Shown here: positions 6,151 to 34,541 of the stretch, piece after piece
How the letters are laid out: every line of letters starts with the position of its first letter
How positions within the stretch are numbered: position 1 is the stretch's first letter
From: a virus
Taxonomy: Duplodnaviria > Heunggongvirae > Uroviricota > Caudoviricetes
Strand: one strand, 5' to 3'
Virus record (IMG/VR): IMGVR_UViG_2526164631_000023
DNA length: 64,000 bases
Program-made: the position numbers and the translations under genes
The notes under the pieces: model-generated
The model's input: the letters and a program-made list of their open reading frames with translations, nothing else
Database searches by the model: none
What the model was told of the DNA's origin: nothing

Positions 6151-6543
6151 TCATTGTCGCCATGCATTTTTTAACTCAGGAATATCTGCCATTTCAATTA
6201 ACTTGCGAAGTCCAGCACTGACTTTCCCATTGCCAACCATAGCAAGCCAATCTCTTACAGCTTTCGGCATGTAGAGCGTTGCAGTTACCGGCTCTTCAAC
6301 CCTGGCAGGACATCCGCATACAGGCCATTTAATTGATTCCATAACTTCGGATGCCGGGGTGAGGGCGGGGACATTGAGTATATCTCTACCAGAAAACTGG
6401 ATAACGATCCGTTCAGCGAGCGAGAGTATCTCACTTTCGGCAAGAATTGATGCCAACTGCGCCTCAACAAGAAAGCGACTTGTTGTGTTCAGAGAGTGGC
6501 TCTTAGCGCCATTTTTATACGAAACAAAGATTCGATACGCCAT
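6151..6543 (-). CDS. Hypothetical protein (130 aa)
   Basis: ORF only; first gene of the leftward unit; operator-like motif just upstream of its start. Confidence 0.3.
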   Translation of the reverse strand: MAYRIFVSYKNGAKSHSLNTTSRFLVEAQLASILAESEILSLAERIVIQFSGRDILNVPALTPASEVMESIKWPVCGCPARVEEPVTATLYMPKAVRDWLAMVGNGKVSAGLRKLIEMADIPELKNAWRQ

Positions 6544-6556
6544 AACTCTAATGATT

Positions 6557-6575
6557 TGTGTTAGAAAACTAAAAT
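6557..6575 (+). promoter_or_regulatory. Operator-like motif copy a (TGTGTTAGAAAACTAAAAT)
   Basis: Member of a dispersed family of asymmetric ~19-bp sites, consensus tGTGTTAGAAA(a/t)(c/t)TAA(a/t)T. Confidence 0.45.
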
Positions 6576-6701
6576 TAAATCACATAACAACATGAGTGTT
6601 AATATATTTTATTTTACTAAACCTATTGACTAAATCACAAAGTAGGTATTGTTAGCCCGTCAAAAGAACCTTCACGCCGCGCCCGAATTTAGGGCTTAAC
6701 C

Positions 6702-8399
6702 GTGAATAAAAACATTCAGCCAGCTCGTGATCGCGAGCGCGAGATTATGAATCGGGCGGCAAGCGTCATGGCTATGACCGTCGATCCGACCACCGATGCA
6801 GCAGGCAACATGATTGCTGACCAGGCAGTAATGATGGAAAACCTGGATAAAGCAATCCAGAAAGTGCCTATGTTTGAAGGCGTAAATCCAGAGGTCGCTC
6901 GTCAGATCACTGGTGGGTGGGCTATGTCTCTGCATGAGTATAAACGTCAACATGGTCATTACCCGGCAAGTGACATCCTGGCGAACGCACACATGGCTCT
7001 TGAGCGCCTGATGACTGAATGTGCCAGTGATACCCATGAAGGCACGGGTAAGGCAATGTTTGAGTCTGTCGCGCAATCAATGCGTAGCTCTGACGGCGTA
7101 ATGAAAGTTGCTCAATATGCTGCTCTAATTCTGCCTGCCTCTCTGGGCGCTGCTACCAGTGATGCCTGTACTTTTGTTCCTTGTGATCGTGACGAGTCAA
7201 ATATTTATGAACTGGTCAACGTAGCAGGCACAAAATTCGGCACCTTCAACCAAGGTGACGAACTGAATATGCAGTCAGCTGGTGTTTATTCTCAAATGAA
7301 GCGCCTGTATGCCCTTTCCACTAAAGGGGATGGCAGCACCAAAACCTTCCAGTTCAACATCCAAAATTTTGAGGGACAATCCTGCCCGCTTCGCGCTGGT
7401 TATAACAAACTGCTGATCAACCGCAAACCGTCCAAAGTTGACGACGGCGATGGCAACCTTTATTTCAATGCTAAAGACAGCAAAGGTAATGCTTTCTCAG
7501 CGACTGCCAAAGTTGCCTATGACACTGGTGTCATTGACATTACATTTACCCAGGCTCCGCCAGAAGGTACTGAAATTGCTGTTCAGGTCGAAATTAACAT
7601 CGAGCGCAATCCAAGCCTGATTCCGGTGATCAACCAGGCTATGCGTAAGTACGAAGTTCGTCCGTCCCAGTACGTACTTGCTTCCGAACACACGGTAATG
7701 TCCGCATCCGATTTAAGCCGTGAGCACGGCCTTGAATTAGCGGCACTTCAGTTCTCCGCGATGCGCAACTGGATCTCCCATGAAACCGACATCATGCGTC
7801 TGCGCACCCTGGTATTCCATACCGTTTATGGTCGTGAATTTGATGTGGCTCTGCCGGAAGCTCAAAACTATGAGTCCTGGGTCGGTCTCCTGCGTCACGT
7901 AGTAAACGCTCTGTCTCAAGAAATGGCAAATCGTACCCTGACAACGGGTATTCGTGGCGGCTTTGCTGGTAGTGACGCCGCGAACTTCCTGCGCTCTCTG
8001 CCTCCACAGCACTTCCAGATCGCACCAGGTTACGTTCAGTCGCCGTATGTACAGTACATCGGCACCCTGTTTGGCACGATTCGTATTTACGAAGTGCCGC
8101 AACCTGTCTGTGAGCAATTCCAGGCACAGGGATATGACTTCGGGCTGGATGACATCTTCTTCTATGGGCGTGGCGAAGGCATCGGTAAAGCCGGTCTGAT
8201 TGCTGGTGATGCAGTCCCAGCAATCCCTTACGTTCACGAAACCAATCCGTCTCTCGTTAACCGTACCACTCTCTGGGGCAGTGCCATCAACGAAGTACAT
8301 CCTCGCAACGGTGAAAACTACTTCACCCGCCTGCGTCTGACTCGTGCCAAAGAAGGTGCTATCGACATGCTGACAGGCAAGGTTAACGAAAAAAAGTGA
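6702..8399 (+). CDS. Virion structural protein, candidate major head protein (565 aa)
   Basis: Large ORF opening the structural block; size close to the P1 major head protein as remembered; assignment by size and context only. Confidence 0.35.
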   Translation: MNKNIQPARDREREIMNRAASVMAMTVDPTTDAAGNMIADQAVMMENLDKAIQKVPMFEGVNPEVARQITGGWAMSLHEYKRQHGHYPASDILANAHMALERLMTECASDTHEGTGKAMFESVAQSMRSSDGVMKVAQYAALILPASLGAATSDACTFVPCDRDESNIYELVNVAGTKFGTFNQGDELNMQSAGVYSQMKRLYALSTKGDGSTKTFQFNIQNFEGQSCPLRAGYNKLLINRKPSKVDDGDGNLYFNAKDSKGNAFSATAKVAYDTGVIDITFTQAPPEGTEIAVQVEINIERNPSLIPVINQAMRKYEVRPSQYVLASEHTVMSASDLSREHGLELAALQFSAMRNWISHETDIMRLRTLVFHTVYGREFDVALPEAQNYESWVGLLRHVVNALSQEMANRTLTTGIRGGFAGSDAANFLRSLPPQHFQIAPGYVQSPYVQYIGTLFGTIRIYEVPQPVCEQFQAQGYDFGLDDIFFYGRGEGIGKAGLIAGDAVPAIPYVHETNPSLVNRTTLWGSAINEVHPRNGENYFTRLRLTRAKEGAIDMLTGKVNEKK

Positions 8400-8544
8400 T
8401 GGTGGCGAACGTGTCGGTATCACCAACGTCACTTGACGTAGATGAAGGTGAAACTATCGCCGCGAACACTTCAAAGGCACAGAAAAAACAAAGCAGAAGT
8501 AAGGCAAAAACACGCCCCTGATTAAGGGGCGTTCAGGAGAAAAA

Positions 8545-8823
8545 ATGGCAAACATTCAAGTAACTATCACGCCATCTGACGCAACAGACAAATCTTTCAC
8601 TGTTGAGTCAGATCACCCTGATATTGTCCGGGTTGATGGCACTACATGTACCGCTCTTAAGGTCGGGCAGGCAGTGCTGACAATCAAAACAAATGACGGC
8701 AATAAAACCGCACAGTGCACAGTCACTGTTAGGGAGGCACATAAAAGCGTAAGCACCGTCAGTGTTGAACCAACTACGAAAGAAGTTACCGTAGGCGATA
8801 ACTTCACGGTAAGCCAATCCTGA
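8545..8823 (+). CDS. Bacterial Ig-like (Big_2-type) domain protein, probable virion decoration
   Basis: 92 aa with beta-rich ITPSDAT..FTV..DIVRVDGTT.TALKVGQAVLTIKT..GNKTAQCTVTV pattern typical of phage Ig-like domains. Confidence 0.5.
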   Translation: MANIQVTITPSDATDKSFTVESDHPDIVRVDGTTCTALKVGQAVLTIKTNDGNKTAQCTVTVREAHKSVSTVSVEPTTKEVTVGDNFTVSQS

Positions 8824-8890
8824 TCAGAGGCTGCCCATTAACCGTGGGTAGCCTTGCCTCGTTCTCTCGCTTTAGAGGATAAGAACCAGC

Positions 8891-10549
8891 ATGAATAAGA
8901 TTAGTTTTTCGGTAGGGCAGGCAGCTGGCGTTGCTGTAATGTCAGTAAATGCTGACGCTACCCTCACCAATACCAGCGGTGGCGCATCCGTCTTTGCTGG
9001 GCTTGTAATATCGCGTCGTGGCGCACCGGGTAAGGTACTGAAAGTTGACGATACGACTTATCAAAGCGTATTAGGTTCACCGATTCACCCTCGCCAGGGC
9101 GCGGCATTTGAACCATATCGCCACGTGGAGCGTGCAGTAAAAGGCGGCTCTGGATATGTCGTTCGAGTTTGCGCTAAAGACATGAAGGTGCCGGGTATTT
9201 CTGTTTCCGTTGTGGGCAAAGCAAAAGCGGCAAAGGCGAGCAAAGAACTTTCCGTTGAACCTACTGAAACCACAGTAAATCCAGGTGACACATTAAGCGT
9301 TGGTGTTGCTTCAACTGCAACGACTCAATCAGTGACCTTCACACCCAAAGAGACGCCCCAGATTAAAGGTGGAGAGAAGGCATTATTCTTCATCAAAGAT
9401 GGTGATGCATCTCAAAATCGCACGTTATCACTAACTCGCGATGATGAAGAAAGCGAACTCTTTACGCTGACGCTGAAAGAAAAACAAACCGATGGGTCCA
9501 TTGAGGTGCTGGAAAGCCACCAAGTGTCTTTCAATCCAGAAGGCACCAACGACATGGGCCAACCAGCATGGATTCCGACACTGCTTGAAAGCCAGTCCTC
9601 TCGCATTGGTGCCGTACTGGCAGATAATGCAGAAGCATCCGCTGCTCAACTCATTTTTGAGGATGTAGCTTTTGAAGGTGGTACTGATGGAAATCTGTCC
9701 GAAATTAACGCTGCAGACTATCTGGAAGCATTAAAGGTTCTCGAAGCTTCAGAGGTTAATTACACCGCATTGCTGTCATTGGGTTGTTATGACGCATCCG
9801 CCTTAGCCGCAATCAAAAAGCTGGCTGAAGATGTTCGCGTAGACATGTTCTATGACCTGAAGGGCAACCAGACACCTGAAAACGCTATTTCAGAAGCGAA
9901 AAGCCATAGTTTTGGCGGCTCACATCAACCAAGCCGTTACTACTTCCCGCTCTCCTGCCGAGATACCTTCACTGGGATGAATGTCGTCTATGGCATTAGT
10001 TGCGACGCATTCGTAGCAAAAGCAAAAGGGGTAGCGCTGGTACCGGATGTTGGTGGTTGGCATTACGCACCGGCAGGTATATCACGCGCGATTATTGATC
10101 GACAGAACATTGCCCGAATTCCAAATATCGGTGCAGTTGATCGTGAAGCGTTCGTTCTTGCGCGCATTAATCCGGTTTCAGTTGCTGCTGATGGGTCCGT
10201 TTACATTGACGACTCTTTAACAACTTACAGCAAAAACAACTATCTGCGATTCCAGCATGTGTCTTCCTTGATGAACGCCATCGCCAGAGATTTCTATGAA
10301 GTAGCTCAGGCGATTAAGCACGAACCGGATGGCATTACCAAAGAAACGCTAATGAAAGCAATGACTGAATTGCTTGACCGTTACGTTGCAGCCGGTGCGC
10401 TGGTTACTCCACGTGACAAGTCCCAGGGTGAAGATCCATACGTTGTTCAGGTTGTCCAAAAGGACATCGATCTGTGGGAAGTGTCCTGGTCTGTTTGTCC
10501 GACCGGTACAGCTCGCCGAATCGTCGGTAAGCCAATTCTGATGCGCTGA
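8891..10549 (+). CDS. Candidate tail sheath protein (552 aa)
   Basis: Size and position beside candidate tube gene; C-terminal ARINPVSV..SVYIDDS segment sheath-like; unverified. Confidence 0.35.
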   Translation: MNKISFSVGQAAGVAVMSVNADATLTNTSGGASVFAGLVISRRGAPGKVLKVDDTTYQSVLGSPIHPRQGAAFEPYRHVERAVKGGSGYVVRVCAKDMKVPGISVSVVGKAKAAKASKELSVEPTETTVNPGDTLSVGVASTATTQSVTFTPKETPQIKGGEKALFFIKDGDASQNRTLSLTRDDEESELFTLTLKEKQTDGSIEVLESHQVSFNPEGTNDMGQPAWIPTLLESQSSRIGAVLADNAEASAAQLIFEDVAFEGGTDGNLSEINAADYLEALKVLEASEVNYTALLSLGCYDASALAAIKKLAEDVRVDMFYDLKGNQTPENAISEAKSHSFGGSHQPSRYYFPLSCRDTFTGMNVVYGISCDAFVAKAKGVALVPDVGGWHYAPAGISRAIIDRQNIARIPNIGAVDREAFVLARINPVSVAADGSVYIDDSLTTYSKNNYLRFQHVSSLMNAIARDFYEVAQAIKHEPDGITKETLMKAMTELLDRYVAAGALVTPRDKSQGEDPYVVQVVQKDIDLWEVSWSVCPTGTARRIVGKPILMR

Positions 10550-10592
10550 TTTATAACCCCCGCTAAATGATGCGGGGGAGAGAGGTTTGAAT

Positions 10593-11327
10593 ATGAAAAA
10601 TTATACTGCTGATCCTTTTATGCGTGCGATTTTCGGTTCTGGCTGCTTTGAAAGCGGTGATAAATCCACGCAGGACAATAATGATAACGCCATGCTGGAA
10701 AGCGCAGGACAGAAAGGAAAGGACACTCAACCAAAGCCCAAAGACGACATTGAAACCGCGATGATGGAAGCGGTTGAATCCCGTGCACAAGGTGATATGC
10801 GCAGCCTGGCAGCTTCCATGCTTGCTGGTTGGGTTGAAGATGGTGATCCGGAGGCTGACTCATTTGATGCATTAGCAATCACTATGGCTGGCCTGGCTGA
10901 TATCGATGAAGACACCGATTTCACCGATGAGCAAATCGATGCTTATAATGATGCACTCGCAGCTCTTGCTGATGCAGCTGTTGCGCTTGGCGCTGATCAG
11001 GATGATGTAACCGAAATGATCGACGATGAAGATGACTCAGCTGCCGAACGTGTTTATGACGCTCTTTCCGAAAGCGACACCGACATGATGGAAACAGCTA
11101 TTGCCATTTACACCGTTGCTGGTGGTGATAGCGCAATGCTGGAAGCGGTACGTAAAAAAGTGGTTCGTGATGGCAAGGTAACCATCATCCGTAAACGCCC
11201 GCGTCCTCGCCGCATGACGTCATTGCAAAAACAGGCGCTGAAAAAAGCACGCCGCAAAGCACATACATCCGTAGCGAATATCAACCGCAAAAAATCAATG
11301 CGCATTCGCAAAAAACGCGGTTTGTAA
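10593..11327 (+). CDS. Strongly acidic protein with a basic C-terminal tail
   Basis: ATG at 10593 with SD ggagagagg; Asp/Glu-rich body and C-terminal RKRPRPRR..KKARRK..RKKSMRIRKKRGL; hairpin cccccgc/gcggggg just upstream. Confidence 0.35.
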   Translation: MKNYTADPFMRAIFGSGCFESGDKSTQDNNDNAMLESAGQKGKDTQPKPKDDIETAMMEAVESRAQGDMRSLAASMLAGWVEDGDPEADSFDALAITMAGLADIDEDTDFTDEQIDAYNDALAALADAAVALGADQDDVTEMIDDEDDSAAERVYDALSESDTDMMETAIAIYTVAGGDSAMLEAVRKKVVRDGKVTIIRKRPRPRRMTSLQKQALKKARRKAHTSVANINRKKSMRIRKKRGL

Positions 11328-11376
11328 GTGACATAGGCCGTCTGCAAAGGTGGCCTCTACCTGGGAGAAATAGCGT

Positions 11377-11967
11377 TTGATTTGCGGCGCGATAATGCCT
11401 GACGGAATAAGTCCGTTAATGAAGGTTTATATCCTCTCTTCAGAGGATATGGTCGTCGGTTATATCGGTGAAGGATCTACCGCAGAACTGTCATCAATGT
11501 GGCAATCACCATTTGAAAACCAGTCAGTAGGAGGTTTGCTTGGTGGTATTAGCGCTGCGGCTGGCTCTCTTGCAGATACGCTTCAGACCGCAACCGGCGT
11601 AACAACAAAAACCCTCTTCAACTCAATGCTTGTTTGGGAAGGTCAGCAACCGCCTGAATTTAATCTGGTAATTGATTTCATGGCGACAACGAACGCGCAA
11701 CTTGAAGTGAACGCAGCCATTACAGCATTGCTGAAGATGGAATCGCCGGAACTGAACAATGTAGCGCCATTCGGTCGTCGCCCGGAGACAGTAACGTTAA
11801 ACATAGGTAGGAACATAGCCCTTACCGACGTTGTTATCAAAAGCGTGAGTTACCAACTGGACGCCCCACGCACACCGGAAGGCTATTTCACTCATAACAC
11901 GGTAACCCTGCAATGCAGCGGAAACACCTCGATTAACCGTAGCAACATATCATCTGTTTTTGTGTAG
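11377..11967 (+). CDS. Hypothetical structural-module protein (start uncertain)
   Basis: ORF in structural block; several possible starts. Confidence 0.3.
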   Translation: MICGAIMPDGISPLMKVYILSSEDMVVGYIGEGSTAELSSMWQSPFENQSVGGLLGGISAAAGSLADTLQTATGVTTKTLFNSMLVWEGQQPPEFNLVIDFMATTNAQLEVNAAITALLKMESPELNNVAPFGRRPETVTLNIGRNIALTDVVIKSVSYQLDAPRTPEGYFTHNTVTLQCSGNTSINRSNISSVFV

Positions 11968-13805: not shown

Positions 13806-14028
13806 TATGTGTGCTGTAGGGAAAGGTTTACGTTAAATGTGTGCTGCCGGGAAACCCCATTGCTCAAGATGTGTTGTAGAGGGAATGGTAATGGCAACAT
13901 GTGTGCTGGAGGGGAATTTCGCATGTAAAGAGCGTCATTTATCCCTCCAGCACACATCTGAAATAAGCAATCCTCTGAAATTCCCTCCACCACACATCCA
14001 GACATGAAACTATCCCTTCAGCACACAT
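13806..14028. repeat. incA-like iteron array downstream of repA: ~7 RepA iterons in both orientations
   Basis: ATGTGTGCTG(t/c/g)(a/c)GGGAA copies at 13807, 13836, 13869, 13899 and reverse copies CAGCACACAT at 13948, 13989, 14020. Confidence 0.8.
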
Positions 14029-22706: not shown

Positions 22707-23153
22707 ATGGCTGAAAATTTAAAGGCAAGAGATGGTAACCGCCTGTATAAGGCGCAATTGCTTTCCTACTATTATTCACGCCGCGCTGAGTCGGCGATCG
22801 GCAAAGGTGCGCGTTTTGTTATCTCTAAGGCGTATTGGTGCAAATCTAGTCTGGTAACTGCTAATGGTGCAGGAGGCTGGAATATAGCGGACATTCCACT
22901 CGATTTTAAATTGAGAAACGCTCAGCAGTTTGCTGTGTCCGATCTGATATTGTCCAGTGTGGATGGGATTATCACTATCAATGCAGCCTTCCCTCAAGAA
23001 AGAATGCCGGATAACACGCCTTACGACTTTAACACGCTTGTGCTTGTTGATGCTGAGGAACAGGCTTTTGCTGTGCTTTGCACCCAGCAAGACACCCTCT
23101 ATAAAGGTAAACGTTACAGTATTCTCATGACAATCGAGCAAGTTGAGGGTTGA
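22707..23153 (+). CDS. Tail-fibre operon protein (R-position), 148 aa
   Basis: Immediately upstream of and overlapping the tail-fibre gene. Confidence 0.35.
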   Translation: MAENLKARDGNRLYKAQLLSYYYSRRAESAIGKGARFVISKAYWCKSSLVTANGAGGWNIADIPLDFKLRNAQQFAVSDLILSSVDGIITINAAFPQERMPDNTPYDFNTLVLVDAEEQAFAVLCTQQDTLYKGKRYSILMTIEQVEG

Positions 23154-26100
23154 TTATGGGTGCTGATAAAACGAACAACATAATGACACTATCCTCTGGT
23201 GTCTCACAGCCGTTGCTTGCTGATGTTCAATATTTCGAACTCTATAGTAGTTCGGCTCTTAACAGAAAACTTAAAAATATTGTTTTGCCGGGCTTTTACT
23301 GTGGATTTGAACCAGTTCCCGGCGCAGGGTTGAGAGTCCGTATAACTTCTGAAAACTCAGAAGGTAAAGGGGCTGCTTCAGTAGATGTAAATAATGTTCA
23401 GATATCCGTTCAGCAAATAGAAGATGTGACTGTCTCGGTAAAGGCTGGGGCTACCAACATTATTGTGCTAGAAGCCAATTTTGAACATGGTGTAAAAACG
23501 ACACAGGTAGAGAGCGCATCTTCTGTCAGTGCTGCAAGAATTTACGCGCGTACGGACAATACTATTGGGCAGAATCAAATTGAATTATGTCGAGTTATCG
23601 TGCCTAACGGCGCAACGGCTGTGACGAAAGAAATGATTGTGCTTAAATACCGGGTTAACCGTGCTGTTGGTGTCGAATTCTCTAATGAAATAAGCAGTAC
23701 AGAAGAAAGAAAAGCGGCTACACCTCTGGCTGTCAAAACTCTCCATGATTTGGTTGATACAAAAGCTCCGCTCGATAGTCCACATCTGTCAGGTACGCCG
23801 ACAGCACCTACGGCCTCACAAGGCACAAATAGCACGCAGATTGCAAATACAGCCTTTGTTAAGGCAGCTATAACTGCACTTATCAACGGTGCACCTGGCA
23901 CACTGGATACGCTGAAAGAAATAGCGGCTGCGATCAATAACGACCCGAATTTCAGCACAACTATCAACAATGCCCTGGCTCTCAAAGCGCCTTTGGCAAG
24001 CCCGGCGTTCACAGGTACGCCGACAGCACCTACGGCCTCACAAGGCACAAATAGCACGCAGATTGCTACGACCGCTTATGTAAGAGCTGCCATATCCGCA
24101 TTGGTTGGTTCATCACCAGAAGCTCTTGATACCCTGAATGAGCTTGCCGCAGCACTTGGTAATGACCCGAACTTTGCGACAACAATGACAAATGCGCTGG
24201 CAGGCAAACAGCCTCTGGATGCAACTTTAACCGCTCTTGCTTCCCTTGCGACTGGTGCAAACAAACTGCCTTATTTCACGGGTAAGGATACGGTAGCTCA
24301 GACTGATTTAACGTCAGTCGGTCGCGATATTCTGGCTAAAACAAGCATACTGGCCGTTATCCAATACCTTGGTTTAAGAGAACTCGGTACCAGCGGTGAA
24401 AAGATCCCCCTGTTAAGCACAGCTAACACATGGAGTGCGCGCCAGACTTTCAACGGCGGGATCACCGGGGCGCTGACAGGGAACGCCGACACCGCGACGA
24501 AATTGAAAACCAAAAGGTCGCTTCAAGTTGACCTCCAAAGTGATAACGCCATCGACTTTGATGGTTCATCAAATGCTCTTCTGGGCATAAAAGGTATTTT
24601 ACCAATTACTCATGGGGGATTAGGTGCATCCAGCGTCTCTGGAGGGCGTACTAATCTTGGATTAGGTGTTGCGGACGTCCCCCAATTTAAGGGTATCAAT
24701 CTTGTTAACTCAACAGACGCTGATTTAGCCGCGTCAGGGATTGTAAGTGGTTATCTGAATAATTCAGCTGGGGTACAGAGGAGTCGTTTCAGAATTTATT
24801 CAGAGATAAGGAGTGGCAACCGCTCATGGCTGACGTTACATCTACAATCTGATACCAACACCAATAAATATGCCGGATTAGACATTGACGGTAACTTTCT
24901 GATTACCGGAGATAGCAAATGCCGAGCATTAGAACCAACTGATGCAGCGTTAACAAGAAAAAATATTGATGTTTACAGCAAAGCCGAAGTAGACCTTAAA
25001 AAAGGGATGAAATTCACCAGAGTCAATGCTCCTTCTGGAGCTGAAGAGGGTAAATTCTATCCTGTAGTCATCAAGAGATCTGCAACGAGCAATGGTGAAC
25101 TTGCTTCTCGGGTTATTATTTCCACTGCGTCGCGCCAAGCTGCACATCGCATGAACAACTGCGAATTCAATGGTTTTGTGATGCCTGCTGGTTGGAGTGA
25201 CAGAGGGCGGTACGCATACGGGATGTTCTGGCAATATCAGGATGCAGAACGGGCGATTCATTCTATTGCGATGAGCAATAAAGACGATGAAGTTAGCTCA
25301 GTTTTTTATATTGAAGGCGGAGCATTTCCAGTATGCGTTCTTGTGGAGGAGGGGCTTTCTGTTGTTGTCCCTACAACGGATTATATTGTTGGACAAACCA
25401 CATACAAATGGGGGGCTACCAACCCTAAAGCTGAATGTATAGCTGCCGACATAATTATTGATTTTAGCAATGGTCGTGGTTTCTATAGCTCTGGAAACCT
25501 CAATGGTAATGCTGCAACAGCAACTAAATTACAGACCGCCAGAACAATCAACGGAGTAACCTTCGATGGCACTACTGATATTTCGTTGACACCAGAGAAC
25601 ATTGGCGCGCTGTCTCTATCCGGAGGCACATTATTAGGAGGTCTGACAGCTCCATTACTTACCACTAAAAGCGATCTTATTTTTAGTAGCCATACAAGCC
25701 GTCATATCCGCTTTACATATACGAAAAATGACGGCACAACACTAACTGATGGGTACATATTTAAAGATGGCGTCGATAACCCTAACAGACGACCAGGCAT
25801 CCGGATAAATTGTGCTGCGCCGAATAAAGAAACCGGCAATGGTACTAATTCAGGTGATTGGATATTCGGTGAAGATGGCATTTTTACCATGCCGGGTGGC
25901 ACTGTTCTTCGGGGAGGAATCAATAGCAATGGCGTGCCGCAAAGTGAGTATAAACATGACATGCTCACGTCAGTTGTTGACGATGCAAAAATGTATCTGC
26001 GACGTTTCCGCTCCAGCACAGGTGCAAGCATATGGCATGAAACAATAGAGAATAATGTTTATCGCTTATGCACAGGAACAACTGACGCTCAGGAAGAGTT

Positions 26101-27475
26101 AGTCTTGAGGACTGGTTCCTATGCGAAATTCGCTGGCGAGATTATTTCCAAATCGGCGAATGGTCTGCGCATTGTCTATGGCAACTATGGATTCTTTATC
26201 CGAAACGATGGTTCAAGCACATACTTCATGTTGACCGATTCGGGTAACAGCCTAGGAACCTATAATAGGTTAAGGCCGCTTATCATTAACAATGCCAATG
26301 GTGCTGTTACGATCGGTAATGGACTCAATGTTACTGGCGGCATCAATGGTAGTTTGAACGGTAATGCTGCAACTGCAACAAAACTGCAAACAGCACGCAC
26401 AATAGGCGGTGTGTCATTCGATGGCTCCGCCAATATCAACCTGCCGGGTGTAAACATTGCTGGTAACCAGAACACAACCGGTAATGCAGCGACAGCGACC
26501 AAGTTGCAGACAGCATGTACTATCAACGGCGTCTCGTTTGATGGTTCTAAAGATATTGAACTTAACCCACGGTCTATAGGCACGATCAACTCCACAACAA
26601 TGTCTTTTAGTGGTGGTGCTGGATGGTTCAAGCTAGCAACTGTAACCATGCCACAGGCCAGTTCCGTGGTTTACATAAGCCTGATTGGTGGTGCAGGGTA
26701 TAACGTTGGCTCCCCGCATCAAGCAGGCATCTCTGAGCTGGTTCTGCGTGCCGGAAATGGAAATCCAAAAGGTATTACTGGTGCATTATGGCGACGGACC
26801 TCGGTTGGATTTACTAATTTTGCATGGGTGAATACATCTGGTGATACCTATGATGTTTATGTTGAAATAGGTAATTACGCCACAGGTGTTAATATTCAGT
26901 GGGATTATACCAGTAACGCCAGCGTAACGATTCATACATCACCAACTTATACAGCGAATAAACCAACAGGCCTGACAGATGGAACTGTATATGTAATTTA
27001 CAGTTCGCACATTAAACCGACTGCTGCTGATGTTGGGGCGTTGTCATTATCTGGAGGTCAATTGAATGGTGCACTGGGCATCGGAACATCCAGTGCTCTT
27101 GGCGGTAACTCGATTGTTTTGGGTGATAATGACACGGGCTTTAAACAAAATGGCGACGGTAATCTGGACGTTTATGCTAATAACGTCCATGTTATGCGCT
27201 TTGTCTCCGGCAGCATTCAAAGTAATAAAACCATAAATATTACAGGGCGTGTTAACCCCTCGGATTACGGTAACTTTGATTCCCGTTATGTGAAAGATGT
27301 TCGCCTGGGTACGCGTGTTGTTCAATTGATGGCGCGTGGTGGTCGTTATGAAAAAGCCGGACACGCAATTACCGGATTAAGAATCATTGGTGAAGTAGAT
27401 GGCGATGATGAAGCCATCTTCAGACCAATACAAAAATACATCAATGGCACATGGTATAACGTCGCACAGGTGTAA
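23150..27475 (+). CDS. Tail fibre protein S: constant N-terminal part fused to the currently expressed variable C-terminal cassette
   Basis: 1441 aa with repeated GNAATATKLQTARTI(N/G)GV(S/T)FDGS motifs and C-terminal ..INGTWYN; shares internal segments with reverse-strand cassette. Confidence 0.8.
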   Translation: MIMGADKTNNIMTLSSGVSQPLLADVQYFELYSSSALNRKLKNIVLPGFYCGFEPVPGAGLRVRITSENSEGKGAASVDVNNVQISVQQIEDVTVSVKAGATNIIVLEANFEHGVKTTQVESASSVSAARIYARTDNTIGQNQIELCRVIVPNGATAVTKEMIVLKYRVNRAVGVEFSNEISSTEERKAATPLAVKTLHDLVDTKAPLDSPHLSGTPTAPTASQGTNSTQIANTAFVKAAITALINGAPGTLDTLKEIAAAINNDPNFSTTINNALALKAPLASPAFTGTPTAPTASQGTNSTQIATTAYVRAAISALVGSSPEALDTLNELAAALGNDPNFATTMTNALAGKQPLDATLTALASLATGANKLPYFTGKDTVAQTDLTSVGRDILAKTSILAVIQYLGLRELGTSGEKIPLLSTANTWSARQTFNGGITGALTGNADTATKLKTKRSLQVDLQSDNAIDFDGSSNALLGIKGILPITHGGLGASSVSGGRTNLGLGVADVPQFKGINLVNSTDADLAASGIVSGYLNNSAGVQRSRFRIYSEIRSGNRSWLTLHLQSDTNTNKYAGLDIDGNFLITGDSKCRALEPTDAALTRKNIDVYSKAEVDLKKGMKFTRVNAPSGAEEGKFYPVVIKRSATSNGELASRVIISTASRQAAHRMNNCEFNGFVMPAGWSDRGRYAYGMFWQYQDAERAIHSIAMSNKDDEVSSVFYIEGGAFPVCVLVEEGLSVVVPTTDYIVGQTTYKWGATNPKAECIAADIIIDFSNGRGFYSSGNLNGNAATATKLQTARTINGVTFDGTTDISLTPENIGALSLSGGTLLGGLTAPLLTTKSDLIFSSHTSRHIRFTYTKNDGTTLTDGYIFKDGVDNPNRRPGIRINCAAPNKETGNGTNSGDWIFGEDGIFTMPGGTVLRGGINSNGVPQSEYKHDMLTSVVDDAKMYLRRFRSSTGASIWHETIENNVYRLCTGTTDAQEELVLRTGSYAKFAGEIISKSANGLRIVYGNYGFFIRNDGSSTYFMLTDSGNSLGTYNRLRPLIINNANGAVTIGNGLNVTGGINGSLNGNAATATKLQTARTIGGVSFDGSANINLPGVNIAGNQNTTGNAATATKLQTACTINGVSFDGSKDIELNPRSIGTINSTTMSFSGGAGWFKLATVTMPQASSVVYISLIGGAGYNVGSPHQAGISELVLRAGNGNPKGITGALWRRTSVGFTNFAWVNTSGDTYDVYVEIGNYATGVNIQWDYTSNASVTIHTSPTYTANKPTGLTDGTVYVIYSSHIKPTAADVGALSLSGGQLNGALGIGTSSALGGNSIVLGDNDTGFKQNGDGNLDVYANNVHVMRFVSGSIQSNKTINITGRVNPSDYGNFDSRYVKDVRLGTRVVQLMARGGRYEKAGHAITGLRIIGEVDGDDEAIFRPIQKYINGTWYNVAQV
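24357..24382. other. gix/cix-like 26-bp recombinase crossover site (site A), in frame inside the fibre gene
   Basis: TTATCCAATACC TT GGTTTAAGAGAA matches remembered Gin-site TTATCCAAAACCTCGGTTTACAGGAA at ~20/26; encodes VIQYLGLRE. Confidence 0.5.
26132..26365. repeat. 234-bp inverted repeat, copy 1 (inside S), ~98% identical to reverse complement of 29167-29400
   Basis: Both copies encode EIISKSANGLRIVYGNYGFFIRNDGSSTYFMLTDSGNSLGTYNRLRPLIINNANGAVTIGNGLNVTGGINGSLNGNA. Confidence 0.8.
26196..26221. other. Candidate crossover site B inside the inverted repeat
   Basis: TTATCCGAAACG AT GGTTCAAGCACA; left half fits Hin-family half-site; inverted copy at 29310-29335. Confidence 0.3.
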
Positions 27476-27478
27476 ATT

Positions 27479-28006
27479 ATGCAGCATTTAAAAAATATTA
27501 AGTCAGGAAATCCAAAAACAAAAGAGCAATATCAGCTAACAAAGAATTTTGATGTTATCTGGTTATATACAGAAGACGGTAAAAACTGGTATGAGGAAGT
27601 AAATAACTTTCAGGACGACACCATAAAGATTGTTTACGATGAAAATAATATTATTGTCGCCATCACCAAAGATGCATCCACGCTTAACCCTGAAGGTTTT
27701 AGCGTCGTTGAGGTTCCCGATATTACAGCCAACCGCCGCGCTGATGATTCAGGAAAGTGGATGTTTAAGGATGGAGCTGTAGTTAAACGGATTTATACGG
27801 CAGACGAGCAACAACAACAGGCCGAATCACAAAAGGCCGCATTGCTTTCCGAAGCTGAATCAGTCATCCAACCGCTGGAACGCGCTGTCAGGCTGAATAT
27901 GGCAACAGACGAGGAACGCACACGACTGGAAGCATGGGAACGCTACAGTGTTCTGGTCAGCCGTGCGGATACGGCAAATCCTGAATGGCCACAAAAACCA
28001 GAGTAA
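27479..28006 (+). CDS. Tail fibre assembly chaperone (U/Tfa) for the current cassette
   Basis: 175 aa; N-terminal half ~70% identical to reverse-strand paralog 28035..28568; starts 4 nt after S stop. Confidence 0.8.
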
Positions 28007-28010
28007 AAAT

Positions 28011-28030
28011 TAAGGCCCGATAGCGGGCCT
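28011..28030. terminator. Bidirectional hairpin between convergent U and U' genes
   Basis: aaggcccgatagcgggcctt: 7-bp stem aggcccg/cgggcct. Confidence 0.45.
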
Positions 28031-28034
28031 TCTC

Positions 28035-28568
28035 TCATTCTGGTTGTTCGGGAAACGTTACTGGCAGGCCGGAAGTGTCTGTAGATTCGACTTTCTGCGC
28101 ATAGAGCATCCACTCGGTTAATTTTTGTTTATTCTCGTCGGAAATGATGCCCAGCCGTAGCTGTGAGTCCCATAGCTGGGTTTTATCCCTGACAAGTTGC
28201 AACAGGCTTTGCTTTTCATTTTCCGCTTGTTGCCTCTGCTCTTCCTCGGTATAAGTTCGCTTTATCACTACGCCATCTTTGAACATCCATTTCCCCGAAA
28301 TATCAGCCCGGCGATTTGCTGTAATATCAGGTAATTCAACGACGCTTGCACCCTCTGGATTAATTGCTGAAACATCCTTTTCAATACAAATAATAACGCC
28401 GTTATGGTCATAGACCATTTTCAAAGTGTCTGGCTGGAAATTCTTTTGTTCCTCATACCAGTTTTTTCCATCATCTGAATAAAGCCATTTGATGTTAAAT
28501 TGCTTTGTTAGCTGGTATTGCTCTTTTGTTTTAGGGTTGCCAGCAGTAATGTTTTTTAAGTGCATCAT
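28035..28568 (-). CDS. Alternative tail fibre assembly chaperone (U')
   Basis: 177 aa paralog of U on the opposite strand, directly downstream of the alternative fibre cassette. Confidence 0.8.
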   Translation of the reverse strand: MMHLKNITAGNPKTKEQYQLTKQFNIKWLYSDDGKNWYEEQKNFQPDTLKMVYDHNGVIICIEKDVSAINPEGASVVELPDITANRRADISGKWMFKDGVVIKRTYTEEEQRQQAENEKQSLLQLVRDKTQLWDSQLRLGIISDENKQKLTEWMLYAQKVESTDTSGLPVTFPEQPE

Positions 28569-28570
28569 CG

Positions 28571-30241
28571 TTAAATACTCCCCGCGTTATACCACGTCCC
28601 ATTAATGCAATACTGAATTGGCCTTGCCTGAGTTGTATCAATTAATTCATCACGGTTTCCGTTAACTGAACCCGTAACGACATAACCTGACCTGTCAGAC
28701 CAGCCGGGACCATTCCATGTCTGAACAGATGACAGACCGCCAAGGCGAATACCTGTAATAAACCTTGAGTTACATTCTGCCTGCGTGTATGCACCAACAT
28801 CTCCCGCAGAGGGTTTGCGGGTCGTGGTGTAAAACTCTGACCAGTCAGCCTCAAATCCATAACCATCACGCGCTGAACGATAAAAGATACCGCCGTTTTT
28901 ATAATTCACGCGGAACTGTACAGCAGGGCAACTCCCCGCATTCATATTAAAGTGGAGGATTAATGTCGATGCGCCACCAATGTTTGCGTTATAGACCCCG
29001 CTATTCCAGTTCCAGCCAACAGCTTTATCATTTGCGACCCTGCTTCCTGTTTGCCCTAGAGCAAACGCACCTACATGACTTGCTTTTAATGTGATATCGG
29101 AGGAACCATCAAAAGCCACGCCACTTATTTTTCTGGCAGTTTGTAACTTTGTAGCCGTAGATGCATTACCGTTCAAACTACCATTGATGCCGCCAGTAAC
29201 ATTGAGTCCATTACCGATCGTAACAGCACCATTGGCATTGTTAATGATAAGCGGCCTTAACCTATTATAGGTTCCTAGGCTGTTACCCGAATCGGTCAAC
29301 ATGAAGTATGTGCTTGAACCATCGTTTCGGATAAAGAATCCATAGTTGCCATAGACAATACGAAGACCATTCGCCGATTTGGAAATAATCTCGCCAGCAG
29401 CAGTTAATCCGCCAGTTAACGCTCCTCCAGATAGTGGTAAAGCTCCGACATCAGCCGCAGTAGGCTTGTTTTTAGTGTTATACGCTCTGCGCCATCCTGG
29501 TGAATAACTTGTGCCATTAGACACATAGATAAATTCAGCATTAGTGAGTGCGCCAGATACACTTGTCATCGTTGCCGTTGTTATTCGAATGGTGTAATTG
29601 TTGGTATTATTGCTGAATACTTCTATCACAGCACCCGCCAGTGGAATAATGCCACAACCAGTTTCACTGTCTGGTATGGATGCACTATTTGCATACGCCC
29701 AAGCACAACGAGCGAACCATGCTTTCGTATTGAATGCCCCGTTATTTTGCAACAAAGTAACTAACTGGGCTGTCGTTATTGACTCACCGTTATTACCTGT
29801 TGTTAACCAACCAGTAGGAGATGCCGGGCAACCAATATTTGCTGGTGACAGTGAAATATTCGCAGAACCGTCAAATGAAACCCCATTAATGGTACGTGCT
29901 GTTTGTAATGTCGTGGCAGACGCCGCATTTCCTGTTGTGTTCTGGTTGCCCGTTGTATTTACGCCCGGTATGGAGTCTTTCGATGTATAGACCTGTGCCC
30001 ACTCAGACCATGCCGCACCTGTGTAATCTCTTCGGGAGCGAATGAAAACTGGCGCATGTGCACCGCTCGTACCACTCCAGCCAATAAGCAACTCGCCCTC
30101 ACCAGCAGCACTCGCACCTTTCATGTGCAATACGTTGCCATACGTGGTCGGGTAGCTATTGTTGTACGCCTCGTACATTTGAATGCCAGCAGCGCCTTGA
30201 GTAGAGCCGCTTAACGCCGTAACTCGGCCACGAGATACCAA
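28571..30241 (-). CDS. Alternative tail fibre C-terminal cassette (Sv'): promoterless, no credible start
   Basis: Track start is TTG without SD and frame closes 15 codons upstream; fibre repeats (GNQNTTGNAASATTLQTARTINGVSFDGS) and C-terminal ..INGTWYNAGSI. Confidence 0.7.
   Translation of the reverse strand: MVSRGRVTALSGSTQGAAGIQMYEAYNNSYPTTYGNVLHMKGASAAGEGELLIGWSGTSGAHAPVFIRSRRDYTGAAWSEWAQVYTSKDSIPGVNTTGNQNTTGNAASATTLQTARTINGVSFDGSANISLSPANIGCPASPTGWLTTGNNGESITTAQLVTLLQNNGAFNTKAWFARCAWAYANSASIPDSETGCGIIPLAGAVIEVFSNNTNNYTIRITTATMTSVSGALTNAEFIYVSNGTSYSPGWRRAYNTKNKPTAADVGALPLSGGALTGGLTAAGEIISKSANGLRIVYGNYGFFIRNDGSSTYFMLTDSGNSLGTYNRLRPLIINNANGAVTIGNGLNVTGGINGSLNGNASTATKLQTARKISGVAFDGSSDITLKASHVGAFALGQTGSRVANDKAVGWNWNSGVYNANIGGASTLILHFNMNAGSCPAVQFRVNYKNGGIFYRSARDGYGFEADWSEFYTTTRKPSAGDVGAYTQAECNSRFITGIRLGGLSSVQTWNGPGWSDRSGYVVTGSVNGNRDELIDTTQARPIQYCINGTWYNAGSI
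29167..29400. repeat. 234-bp inverted repeat, copy 2 (inside Sv')
   Basis: Reverse complement nearly identical to 26132-26365. Confidence 0.8.
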
Positions 30242-30265
30242 TGTATTAATGTTGGTTTAAGAGAA
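30240..30265. other. Second gix/cix-like site (site C), same orientation as site A
   Basis: AATGTATTAATG TT GGTTTAAGAGAA; right half and next ~130 bp identical to site A flank. Confidence 0.4.
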
Positions 30266-30568
30266 CTCGGTACCAGCGGTGAAAAGATCCCCCTGTTGAG
30301 TACGGCTAACACATGGAGTGCACGCCAGACTTTCAACGGCGGGATCACCGGGGCGCTGACAGGGAATGCCGACACCGCGACGAAATTGAAAACAGCACGC
30401 ACGATTGGCGGTGTGGTATTTGATGGCTCGGCCAATATCAACCTTCCAGGTGTAAATACAACAGGTAACCAGAACACCACCGGGAATGCTGCTACCGCGA
30501 CAAAACTTGCGACGGCAAGAAACATCAACGGTGTTAAGTTTGATGGCTCAGGCGATATCAAGGTTTAG
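30252..30568 (+). pseudogene. Third, short tail-fibre 3' cassette (S'') lacking a start codon; possible remnant
   Basis: First 142 bp ~96% identical to 24369-24510; encodes ..GLRELGTSGEKIPLLSTANTWSARQTFNGGITGALTGNADTATKLKTARTIGG..GDIKV; stop overlaps invertase stop. Confidence 0.5.
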
Positions 30569-31125
30569 GATTGAAATGATGACGCCGGAAACTTCTTATA
30601 AAGCGTGGAAACAGCCACATCATAGATGATTGCAACCTGCTTACGGGGGATGCCCTTCTCCAGCAATCGCCGCATTTGCTGCCATGTTTCTTCTTGGTAT
30701 TTAGGCCGACGCCCACCTATACGACCTTCTGCGCGAGCTGCATCAAGTCCAGCGCGTGTACGTTCAACGATAAGCTCGCGTTCCATTTCTGCCAGCGCCC
30801 CCATTACGTGAAAGAAAAAGCGCCCCATTGGTGTACTGGTGTCGATGGAGTCAGTGAGACTCCGGAAGTTAATGCCTTTGTCACGAAGCTCTTCCACCAG
30901 CACAACCAAGTGACGCATGCTGCGCCCAAGACGATCTAACTTCCATACGACTAGGGTGTCACCTCTGGAAAGCATACGGAGAACCTTTTTTAACCCAGGG
31001 CGTTCAGCCTTTTTGCCGCTCGCCTTATCCTCAAAAATTAGCTCACATCCTGCGCTTTCAAGGGCGTTTCGTTGTAAAGCTGTGTTTTGGTCATTAGTTG
31101 ATACGCGAATGTATCCAATAAGCAT
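30565..31125 (-). CDS. Serine DNA invertase, Hin/Gin/Cin/Min family
   Basis: From ATG (complement 31125) MLIGYIRVSTNDQN..GDTLVVWKLDRLGRS..MGALAEMERELIVERT.. with catalytic Ser in the YxRVST motif and C-terminal HTH; SD aagggg upstream; track start 31185 is an in-frame upstream extension. Confidence 0.9.
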   Translation of the reverse strand: MLIGYIRVSTNDQNTALQRNALESAGCELIFEDKASGKKAERPGLKKVLRMLSRGDTLVVWKLDRLGRSMRHLVVLVEELRDKGINFRSLTDSIDTSTPMGRFFFHVMGALAEMERELIVERTRAGLDAARAEGRIGGRRPKYQEETWQQMRRLLEKGIPRKQVAIIYDVAVSTLYKKFPASSFQS

Positions 31126-32002: not shown

Positions 32003-32612
32003 GAATAATTATGTTCTTCTTAATTATGATGAGTTAAACGAAAAGGGGCTGTCAAAACTCGTCAAAGAAATCAGCAAAGGTGGTTACAAGATAGCGAGGG
32101 TGATCCCTGCAAGTAATGGCAGGAAGAAAGATGGGATCATGACGCGCACGTTTACCCTTATTGGTATTGATGAACAGACAATGGAAGTTCAGGTTAACGA
32201 TACCGGTGATATATCTGGGATCAAACTGAATGGTAAAACAGTACCGTTCAAGCCAGTAAAAACAATGTCGGCTTTGGGGCAATCTCTTGCGGCTTTATTT
32301 AATCGCGGAGCAACTTCTTTCCAGAAGTCATTAGCTCGAAAACTTGCTCGTGCAGCAAAAAATATTGATGACGGAAATAAGAAGCGGCAGGGAGTTAAAT
32401 CTAACGCTCAGAAATTAGCTGAAGCGAAAGAATCACGTGATGCACTCCGTGAAGATATCGCTAATGCTAACGACAAACTGTCTAAACTCCAGAGCAAGTC
32501 AGACAAAGTAATGCAAGATACGGGTAATGTTAAAGCTGCCTTGTCTCAGGAAGTAGCTAAGACACGTGCTCTTAAAGAAGAAATCGCGCGCCTGGAGGAT
32601 GAGCATGATTAA
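31992..32612 (+). CDS. Coiled-coil protein (P1 Hdf position)
   Basis: About 206 aa from internal ATG (MSNKNNYVLL); track ORF starts 31977. Confidence 0.3.
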   Translation: MSNKNNYVLLNYDELNEKGLSKLVKEISKGGYKIARVIPASNGRKKDGIMTRTFTLIGIDEQTMEVQVNDTGDISGIKLNGKTVPFKPVKTMSALGQSLAALFNRGATSFQKSLARKLARAAKNIDDGNKKRQGVKSNAQKLAEAKESRDALREDIANANDKLSKLQSKSDKVMQDTGNVKAALSQEVAKTRALKEEIARLEDEHD

Positions 32613-34541
32613 CAATCCTTTACGAATTAATATTCAGTCTACTTTTGCTGATACGATCCCCGGCTATATGCCAAGTCGCTGGTCTTCAGAAGAATTAAGC
32701 GAAGATGACCTGATTTTTGAGGCGGCGACCTTAGAAGATATTGAGCTTGCCTATATGGGCAATGAAATTCTGGTTGTGTCTGACGAAGCTATGTTTGAGT
32801 CCATAACTACAACCAGAATTCGGTTAGCTCAAACAATGCGAGCTTTCGTCCGTGCGCTGAATCGTGGCCTGAATGGTACGAATATTATGGCAGGGACTGA
32901 TGAAGCCGGGACCGATGAAAATGGACGTAATTGTATTGGTGGTGCGATTATCGGTCGTGTACGTCGGGTAGCTAATATCCCTGTTTTGACCGCGCAGATA
33001 CCGCTTACTGACGGGCAGAGTACAAGCATAATTTTCCACTCTCCAACAGCTGACGGGGCAAAAATAAAGAGTAACGACGAGCTTGTTGCATTTCAGTTTT
33101 TACTTAATAAGCGTAACGTAACTCACGTTGTCGCCCCGATTGGTGGGAGAGATGTTTCTTTAAGCCAGGTATGCCAGGCGCTATCTAATTTGATTGAGCG
33201 TAACAGCGAAAAATTTAAGAAGGCAAAAGAGCGCCAGGACAAAATGAAGGCAGATATTGAGAGTTATCTCAATGAAGCAGATAAACTGGCAGAAGAACGG
33301 TCAATAATGATTGATCAGGTGGACGTTGCGCAACGTGGGCTGACTGAAAAGCGTGCTGCTCTTACGGAGATGCAAAAAAACTTGATGCCCAGAAAGCCAT
33401 CAACGAGGAATTACAAGCAAAACGCGATAAATTGTTGTCTGCTAAAGGTGAAAAAACGAAAGAACGAGCGTTTAGCGACCAGCTGCGACATGTAAAACAT
33501 AATCTTGCCATTGACGGAAAAACAGTGCTGGATAATGGCGCTGAAGTTAATTATGTCACGTCCGGCAGTGACAATTTCGTTACGATAGTAGCACCTGAAG
33601 GTAAATTCAGTATTGATGCCAGTGCTGTCAAAGGAGGCAGTTTGGCAGATGCTGCAACCAAATTACTTAAAGCCTACCGAGAGCATAACGCAGATAAATA
33701 TAAAGTTGATGTGTTACCAGGCCAGCAGGAAGACCCCGAACCACCACAGACAGACCCCGAGACGAACCCAGTATCACAACCAGAGAGCCAGGATGTAGGT
33801 AAATACCACTATGCACTTCAATCTCGCCCGGCTGGTGTTGGTGCTGTGCCGGATGGAAATAAAGCCGTGCTTGATCGTCCTGACCAGGCTGATCAGTATT
33901 ACGAATATGCTCGTCACGGTATCATTACGTATGACCGTAAACTGACAGATGAAGAAGTCAGCCAGTACGAGTTGCTCTATCTTCCTGATGAAGATGAGCT
34001 GAAAGATTTTGCAGGCCAATTGGTTGTGTCCAGCATGTCGAAACATATTGATGGCTATGTAGACCTGTTTGGCAGTGACCTGAAAACATTCAAGGCGCAA
34101 GTGAAAATTCTTTTCCGCAAAGCGTTTCCAAACGTGGCGTATCCACTTGGTGATGGGGAGAACCTTTTCATTATGGACGTATATAACGCCCTTCAAAATC
34201 ATTCAAACGAAGTAACGCCAGAGCCTGAATTAGCACCTGTAGTTGAGCCAGAATCACACCCACAAACAGCACCAGAGCAACAGCCAACGCCGGAAGACGC
34301 TGAAGAAGCGGCAACTGAAGCTGATCAGGAAGCAGATAAAGCACTGGAGTACCTAAAATCCGTCCCGGTGCAGTTTACATCTCGCGATCTGACGGTAATC
34401 AGTGCCGAACTTGACCATGTGCAGGAAGCTGCAAACGCTCTTATCAGTGCTGGTCGATACGACGAGAACGAATCAACGGTTGGCGCAGCAGTTGACTACC
34501 TGATCAACATTCTGGCTGAAATTCAGCAGGGAGGTGCTTAA
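32604..34541 (+). pseudogene. darA-like virion antirestriction/head gene split by +1/-2 frameshift in an A7 tract (33374-33380)
   Basis: ORFs 32566..33495 and 33432..34541 overlap in different frames; one extra A gives a continuous ~645-aa protein (..TEMQKKLDAQKAINEELQAKRDKLLSAKGEK..), size close to P1 DarA as remembered. Confidence 0.5.

Follow-up and report, generated by a model that had tools for sequence, protein, structure and literature searches.

A nested tail-fibre switch around the Cin invertase of a D6/P1-like phage-plasmid of Escherichia coli, probably captured in a rare isomer

How many tail fibres can be assembled from a single set of genes, and by which inversions, is the question raised by the fibre locus of the IMG/VR virus record IMGVR_UViG_2526164631_000023 (Caudoviricetes), analyzed here as a stretch of 64,000 nucleotides (hereafter the window) in which this locus spans positions 22,707 to 31,125. 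In Enterobacteriaceae, P1-like phage-plasmids are widespread and carry resistance genes; they also serve as DNA-delivery vehicles, and their host range is set by the fibre locus. A first-pass annotation, made from the sequence of the window alone, had described this locus as a multi-site shufflon of the Min type, with an invertase, two inverted cassettes and a third short 3′ cassette. The comparison of six assemblies of the same plasmid leads to another description: the locus is very probably a Cin-driven host-range switch with a nested, two-tier layout, of which the window carries a rare isomer. In the literature on P1-like plasmids, as far as it was examined, the C segment is treated as a simple two-state switch. 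What is new here is the nested second tier that sequence comparison reveals on an otherwise well-known P1 Cin system.

Sequence comparison indicates that the window belongs to a D6/P1-like phage-plasmid of E. coli. Its 8-kb tail-fibre region is 100% identical to NZ_CP077480.1, a 97,453-bp plasmid of E. coli O111:H2 strain 12A, and its nearest phage relatives are D6 and P1. The same length is found in another plasmid, NZ_CP066033.1 (E. coli FDAARGOS_1059), which is collinear with the entire window; outside the fibre locus, the two differ only by one IS100 insertion, about 1-2 substitutions and a few homopolymer indels. An exact-protein look-up with the fibre chaperone U retrieved four more assemblies of this plasmid, all from NCTC (GCA_900450295.1, GCA_900449905.1, GCA_900448305.1 and GCA_900449795.1). 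The set therefore comprises six assemblies of one plasmid, i.e. the window/CP077480.1, CP066033.1 and the four NCTC assemblies. At the fibre locus, the five other public assemblies differ from the window by rearrangement alone.

The constant 5′ part of the fibre gene S, called Sc (23156..24369, + strand), is 100% identical and occupies the same place in all isomers. What follows can be described as four segments delimited by five junctions, whose cut points lie at 24369/70, 26208/09, 29321/22, 30252/53 and 30560/61. Segment 1 (24370..26208, + strand) is the shaft module of Sv, with 613 codons, and is found inverted beside the invertase gene cin in CP066033.1 with 100% identity. Segment 2 (26209..29321) is a nested invertible segment, which the assemblies of this plasmid show in either orientation with respect to segments 1 and 3. 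Segment 3 (29322..30252, - strand), delineated from its open reading frame and from the comparison with CP066033.1, is the middle of the silent cassette Sv′. Segment 4 (30253..30560, + strand) is flipped in the window relative to the remainder of Sv′; the other five assemblies have it directly joined to segment 3. Segment 1 on the one hand, and segments 4 and 3 together on the other hand, would be alternative shaft modules. Segment 2 carries two opposed units, each made of a tip and its chaperone: tip A (26209-27475, + strand) with U (27479-28006, + strand), and tip B (28571-29321, - strand) with U′ (28035-28568, - strand), both chaperones matching the Pfam family Caudo_TAP.

Each segment of the CP066033.1 fibre locus is 100% identical to its counterpart in the window, and the order is different: once re-joined as (4,-3,2,-1), the window matches CP066033.1 over 11,036 bp with no mismatch. 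A further state, (1,-2,3,-4), was found in three of the four NCTC assemblies. Two NCTC contigs are chimeric, their halves fitting different isomers, including the reverse complement of (4,-3,-2,-1), which points to mixed isomer populations within a culture. In total, the six assemblies contain at least three complete isomers and parts of others, and document three types of inversion: that of the whole 6.2-kb C segment, that of the 3.1-kb segment 2 alone and that of the 308-bp segment 4 alone. These rearrangements and their exact breakpoints are the directly observed part of the analysis. They bear out the earlier view that the complexity of this locus goes beyond the two sites of P1/Mu: several segments invert among the six assemblies.

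Which sites are used at these junctions? Written as 12 + 2 + 12 bases, site a (24357..24382, + strand), TTATCCAATACC TT GGTTTAAGAGAA, is the canonical Sc-side cix. The gix/cix-like site that had been noticed in frame at 24357 is identical to the annotated P1 and D6 sites, and it matches the known cix halves at 24/24 positions. It is read in frame as V I Q Y L G L R E, with the crossover dinucleotide at 24369-24370, and the P1 annotation places the Cin crossover between the two central T's of the site. A second copy had been reported at 30240. Site d (30240..30265, + strand), AATGTATTAATG TT GGTTTAAGAGAA, is indeed in direct orientation to site a, but it is not a full copy of cix. Its core and right half, the canonical inner half, are those of cix, its left half is unrelated (4/12), and it would be no regular third site but one hybrid product of a single rare crossover with a secondary-site half. 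The other hybrid, site e (30548..30573, + strand), TCAGGCGATATC AA GGTTTAGGATTG, absent from the first-pass annotation, joins a secondary-site half, unrelated to cix, to the canonical cin-side half. It is the cin-side partner and is inverted relative to a and d. The cin-side cix of the window is therefore canonical in its cin-side half and core only; the full canonical site is present in all five sister assemblies.

The remaining two sites lie in an inverted repeat whose arms (26132..26438, + strand, and 29092..29398, - strand) correspond to a conserved block coding for part of a Gp34_trimer-type domain. These arms share 92% identity over 307 nucleotides, with about 238 nucleotides nearly perfect and 197 nucleotides perfect. 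As previously suggested, a candidate site is present inside this repeat shared by both cassettes: site b (26196..26221, + strand), TTATCCGAAACG AT GGTTCAAGCACA, has a symmetric AT core and matches the known cix halves at 17/24 positions, and site c (29309..29334, - strand) is its inverted copy. Every 26-mer of the window was scored against the known cix halves. Scores of 17/24 are expected about twice by chance per 64 kb, and three other matches of 17-18/24 occur elsewhere in the window, so sequence alone is insufficient to validate sites b and c.

Segment 4 is joined to segment 3 through TCAGGCGATATC AA CATTAATACATT in five of the six assemblies, which also have a canonical cin-side site, TTCTCTTAAACC AA GGTTTAGGATTG. 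Relative to these five, the window displays a reciprocal exchange located exactly at the AA core. Segment 4 can thus be recognized as the first 102 codons of Sv′, and d and e as the hybrid sites left by the exchange. The partners of this exchange share only 3 bp (CAA), which excludes homologous recombination, and the breakpoints fall on the same dinucleotide as the Cin crossover annotated in P1. In its sequence, this flip has the marks expected of Cin exchanging the cin-side cix with a poor secondary site in Sv′. Because segment 4 is flipped, the 142-bp terminal repeat of the C segment is in direct orientation in the window. In this state, the expressed fibre is predicted to be unaffected, and the silent cassette is split. 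From there, inversion of the whole segment would give a truncated fibre, and inversion between d and e would restore the normal layout.

The enzyme presumed to catalyze such a crossover is encoded at the locus. The gene cin (30565..31125, - strand) encodes a serine DNA invertase of 186 amino acids with Resolvase (E = 2e-51) and HTH_7 (E = 2e-18) domains. The invertase is 98% identical to P1 Cin and retains its RVS9T motif; with Ser9 present and both domains intact, it does not appear to be catalytically dead. The 5′ part of cin contains a recombinational enhancer (31036..31107, - strand) identified by homology, 68 of its 72 bases being identical to the annotated P1 enhancer.

These observations can be assembled into a mechanism with two tiers. 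Cin, presumably with the host protein Fis and the enhancer located in cin, would invert the C segment in its full length of 6.2 kb by exchange between the Sc-side cix and the cin-side cix, whose cores are TT/AA, and thereby choose the shaft. The 3.1-kb segment 2 would invert between the 238-307-bp repeats, either by action of Cin at the AT-core sites b and c or by homologous recombination between the repeats, and thus choose the tip and its chaperone independently of the shaft. The lineage that led to the window would also have undergone a Cin crossover between the cin-side cix and the secondary site TCAGGCGATATC AA CATTAATACATT of Sv′, which flipped the 308-bp segment 4 and turned both partners into the hybrids d and e. 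The role of Cin as catalyst, the requirement for Fis and the enhancer and the different host ranges of the fibres are what we infer.

When inversions are permitted only between junctions that have complementary cores of the same class, the computation of the state space gives eight reachable isomers. These encode four predicted full-length fibres of 1439, 1267, 1239 and 1067 amino acids, resulting from the association of shaft 1 or shaft 4+3 with tip A/U or tip B/U′. Each of the four predicted fusions forms an open reading frame, and the 1239-amino-acid fusion is the annotated S of CP066033.1. In two of the states, segment 4 stands backwards against Sc, giving an out-of-frame end and a truncated product of 408 amino acids.

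Several points weigh against this mechanism. The isomers were deduced from consensus assemblies, including two chimeric ones. With a match to cix at 11/24 positions, the secondary site scores no better than about 9% of the positions of the window, and its sequence therefore does not explain the choice of this spot. Moreover, the hybrid state occurs in only one of the six assemblies, and hybrid junctions were found in none of the other databases searched. The d-type junction was found at none of the 90 inner-half sites detected in IMG/VR contigs (49 Sc-type, 40 cin-type and one other) and in none of the JGI metagenome contigs; the 36 cin-side sites of the fetched loci are all canonical; and the e-type junction was absent from the 246 PLSDB plasmids carrying the cin-side half. 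The contiguous junction of segments 4 and 3 is present in 152 PLSDB plasmids, five IMG/VR loci and eight metagenome contigs, although many of these 152 plasmids carry a fixed fibre without cin, so that this denominator overstates the rarity of the flip. The distribution of these junctions indicates that the segment-4 flip is a rare event. Finally, the polymorphisms of the arms place the segment-2 crossover no more precisely than within the 197-bp perfect stretch in which site b lies. The sole non-standard partner among the 90 inner-half sites, at position 4289 of IMGVR_UViG_2778261574_000004, associates the canonical inner cix half with a different but good outer half, TTCGCAAAAACC; it may reflect a different invertase context or be another secondary-site product.

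Could the unusual arrangement of the window be an assembly artefact of an ordinary two-site C segment? Invertible regions bearing repeats are often mis-assembled, and two of the NCTC contigs are visibly chimeric. However, the flip of segment 4 involves no flanking repeat that could mislead an assembler, its breakpoints lie exactly on the cix core, each segment is 100% identical between two independently finished plasmids, and three further assemblies share a third arrangement with the same breakpoints. Given the absence of a misleading repeat, the exactness of the breakpoints and the concordance of independent assemblies, we rejected this explanation, which we regard as extremely improbable. 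Almost as improbable is a designed Min-type system with three 3′ cassettes, in which the short piece would function as a fibre end and the site at 30240 would be a third crossover site of the regular kind. This top-strand piece (30252-30568, + strand) does open with the inner half of cix in the S frame and close with a stop codon. Nevertheless, sites a and d are in direct orientation, so that Sc could reach the piece by deletion only, and the product, Sc followed by 104 amino acids, would have neither a tip domain nor any Pfam match. Furthermore, the left half of site d matches cix at only 4/12 positions, the IMG/VR sites and metagenome contigs are devoid of d-type junctions, and the piece is contiguous with the rest of a longer cassette, as its 5′ part, in five of the six copies and in more than 160 other sequences. 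The piece that had been taken for a third alternative 3′ cassette is thus the 5′ part of Sv′, and a third functional cassette was rejected in view of its deletion-only access, its tipless product and its contiguity with Sv′ elsewhere.

The mechanism of the inner tier is far more debatable: mapping of the crossover to 197 bp does not distinguish between Cin acting at b and c and homologous recombination between the repeats, and the two are roughly evenly balanced. The proposal that segment 2 inverts by RecA-dependent homologous recombination between the 238-307-bp repeats, possibly aided by Ref and without Cin, the cix-like sequences at 26196 and 29309 being a coincidence of F-I-R-N-D-G-S coding, has in our opinion slightly less than an even chance. 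It accords with the crossover being placed only within the perfect repeat and with the frequency of chance matches as good as b and c. The repeat is a conserved Gp34_trimer-coding block present in many fibres that have neither a partner repeat nor an invertase. Among 14-22 homologous blocks, the borders of mosaics lie at the ends of the block and not at the core, and recombination signals are dispersed across the block. These blocks provided no site-specific mosaic signal at the core of site b, the four-gamete violations being found across the site (-8 to +21) as well as elsewhere (+28 to +58). In addition, the plasmid encodes a Ref-family nuclease and RdgC, and a single nucleotide polymorphism, found in both arms, separates the nested-repeat loci L003 and L088, which shows concerted evolution of the arms by gene conversion. 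Against homologous recombination, both orientations of segment 2 recur among six nearly identical copies, and apparently within single cultures, which implies a rate comparable to that of the Cin-driven flip of the whole segment. Sites b and c also match cix much better (17/24) than the secondary site attributed to Cin (11/24), and the chance of finding a 17/24 match inside a 238-bp repeat is about 1%. As b and c have the same AT core, an exchange between them would be productive. A role of the candidate site in the inversion is plausible. Going further, we tentatively propose, as a possible but somewhat doubtful extension of the two-tier mechanism, that a single invertase operates two independent switches kept apart by their core dinucleotides, the AA/TT cix choosing the shaft and the AT-core pair of the conserved domain block choosing the tip and chaperone. 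If true, the tiers would never cross-react, because mismatched cores cannot be religated, and one enzyme would achieve a clean 2 x 2 assembly of fibres, while the conserved block would be a portable docking point for new tips.

How does this locus relate to known inversion systems? By its enzyme, the two canonical sites of its sister isomers, its enhancer and its gene order, it is a member of the P1 Cin family that departs from it by the nested second tier. Besides Cin itself, it shares with P1, P7 and D6 the Sc-side cix (identical in P1 and D6), the conserved cin-side half-site and enhancer, the order R, Sc, Sv-U, U′-Sv′, cin and, in the sister isomers, both canonical cix sites. It differs from them by the size of its C segment (6.2 kb compared to 4.2-4.3 kb) and by its internal inverted repeat, which would allow the tip and chaperone to invert alone and thus give four fibres instead of two. 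One invertible segment and two fibres characterize the P1 type; three types of inversion and four predicted full-length fibres were found here.

The likeness to Min, which had been put forward initially, holds for the presence of more than two crossover points in the fibre gene and for the nested or overlapping segments with many isomers, as well as for the P1-related plasmid host and the Din-family invertase. It fails for the enzyme, which is Cin (the P1 record shows only patchy nucleotide similarity, 83-89%, between the P1 cin region and p15B), and for the layout, which comprises two tiers (shaft, then tip), eight isomers and only two good AA-core sites. The 3′ ends do not compete for one junction: only shaft 1 or shaft 4+3 joins Sc in frame, sites b and c are downstream of that junction, and the secondary site joined to Sc leads to a truncated product. 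The Min system of p15B, studied by Sandmeier, Iida and Arber in 1990-1992, is said to have six mix sites in 3.5 kb, connecting six 3′ ends to one junction in 240 isomers. As for the quasi-sites of Cin (cixQ), Iida and Hiestand-Nauer reportedly observed in the 1980s that a true cix recombines with a poor secondary site sharing its central dinucleotide, generating two hybrid sites. The segment-4 flip would be a crossover of the same type as these cases, with two hybrid sites, but it is natural, fixed in a wild plasmid, located inside a silent fibre cassette and still reversible.

Tip B, U and U′ have about 93-94% DNA identity to U, U′ and the 3′ end of S′ of Mu, and the switching logic is the same as that of the Gin/G segment. 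By contrast, the systems of Gin (Mu) and Pin (e14, Shigella) have two sites and one invertible segment. As in the R64 shufflon, several invertible segments choose the C-terminal end of an adhesin. However, that system relies on the tyrosine recombinase Rci and on sfx sites, and the only recombinase at the present locus is a serine invertase; the word shufflon, used in the first-pass annotation, therefore applies only loosely, and not in its strict sense.

Is the nested layout restricted to this plasmid? In the set of 17 complete C segments that were compared, the repeats of the ordinary ones (3.4-4.7 kb) are all terminal. A subset of 6.2-6.9 kb has an internal repeat of 307-520 bp that carries a b-like sequence: the window, its sister, L003 and L088-L090. 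Inverted copies of the b-like sequence are also found in L084/L085. The arms of L003 and L088-L090 show perfect identity over a stretch that begins 7 bp before the site and reaches 387 bp into the segment; outside it they diverge. L088 and L089 differ only by inversion of the whole segment, and a search for isomers of the L003 nested-repeat family found no near-identical relative. Two observations concern L088 itself (NZ_CP162407.1): a frameshifted, partial “phage tail protein” pseudogene (8346-9094) lies beside cin, and the 1 kb nearest to cin fails to match the Sc-proximal end of the sisters L089 and L090 in inverted form, which suggests a further irregular rearrangement in the terminal repeats. 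A large group of P1-like plasmids, including NZ_CP062860.1, NZ_CP062905.1, NZ_CP119737.1 and NZ_CP119743.1 (L091-L094), carries at positions 6372-11517 of the locus the Sc-side cix and the 4+3 shaft, a fixed fibre of 1339 amino acids, one chaperone and a serine acetyltransferase gene. These plasmids lack both cin and a second cassette, and their switch therefore seems to have been lost and frozen in one state.

A two-tier switch that gives four fibres from one gene set, with tips placed behind a conserved block, would explain how host range can diversify quickly in these elements, and its layout suggests a natural design for engineering exchangeable tips. The window would provide a clean natural example of a serine invertase acting at a secondary site, and would imply that off-pathway inversion products are maintained in wild plasmids, where they can silently put one arm of a switch out of action. 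The layout would also account for the fragmentary “tail protein” open reading frames beside cin that annotation pipelines call hypothetical or pseudogenes.

The components listed in the first-pass annotation are all present, as assessed from open reading frames and Pfam: the fibre gene at 23150-27475, U, the opposite-strand cassette running from 30241 to 28571 with U′, the short piece and the invertase. The gene order is that of the P1/D6 tail-fibre operon, i.e. baseplate genes, R, S and U, then U′ and Sv′ on the opposite strand, cin, lydA/lydB and darA-like genes. Gene R (22707..23153, + strand), identified as an open reading frame 5′ of S, matches PF26881 (Phage_P1_tail_fiber_R), and its D6 counterpart is annotated as similar to P1 gene R. 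In the isomer of the window, S (23156..27475, + strand) consists of Sc, segment 1 and tip A and encodes 1439 amino acids with Pfam Phage_fiber_2 and Gp34_trimer domains; an alternative TTG start at 23150 would extend it to 1441 amino acids. The open frame of Sv′ (28571-30241, - strand) lacks its own start codon. A strong GC-rich hairpin with T-rich flanks (28012-28031), AAGGCCCGCTATCGGGCCTT, separates the convergent genes U and U′ and is probably a bidirectional terminator closing the S operon in either orientation of segment 2. The fibre locus also contains five copies of an 80-nucleotide coding repeat (NGNAATATKLQTARTINGVxFDGS...) with 61-73% identity, located at 25502-25581, 26357-26436, 26477-26556, 30359-30438 and 30479-30558; these are likely structural repeats and also offer homology for the exchange of modules.

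Outside the fibre locus, the plasmid backbone (L086/L087, NZ_CP066033.1 79407-95393) has genes for RdgC, a Dam-family methyltransferase, a glutamine-tRNA ligase and a recombination enhancement nuclease of the Ref family. This Ref protein could boost homologous recombination between the short inverted repeats of the fibre locus. In the window, the darA-like head gene (start at 32605) is broken after codon 296 by a run of seven A's at 33375-33381. Eight A's and an intact gene of 645 amino acids are found in CP077480.1 (L106) and in all four other assemblies checked. Over 20.5 kb, the window and L106 differ by this run alone, which is either an error of the sequence version or a genuine frameshift. 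Three of the six assemblies have IS100 (IstA/IstB) inserted in the same gene, where it shows an overlap of 5 bp (34008-34012); the insertion loci are L002 from position 13951 onward, L104, L105 and L109, and the window has no such insertion. As CP066033.1 carries an IS100 copy and yet equals CP077480.1 in length, the plasmid of the window may hold about 2 kb of additional DNA, perhaps the insertion sequence itself, beyond the 64 kb analyzed.

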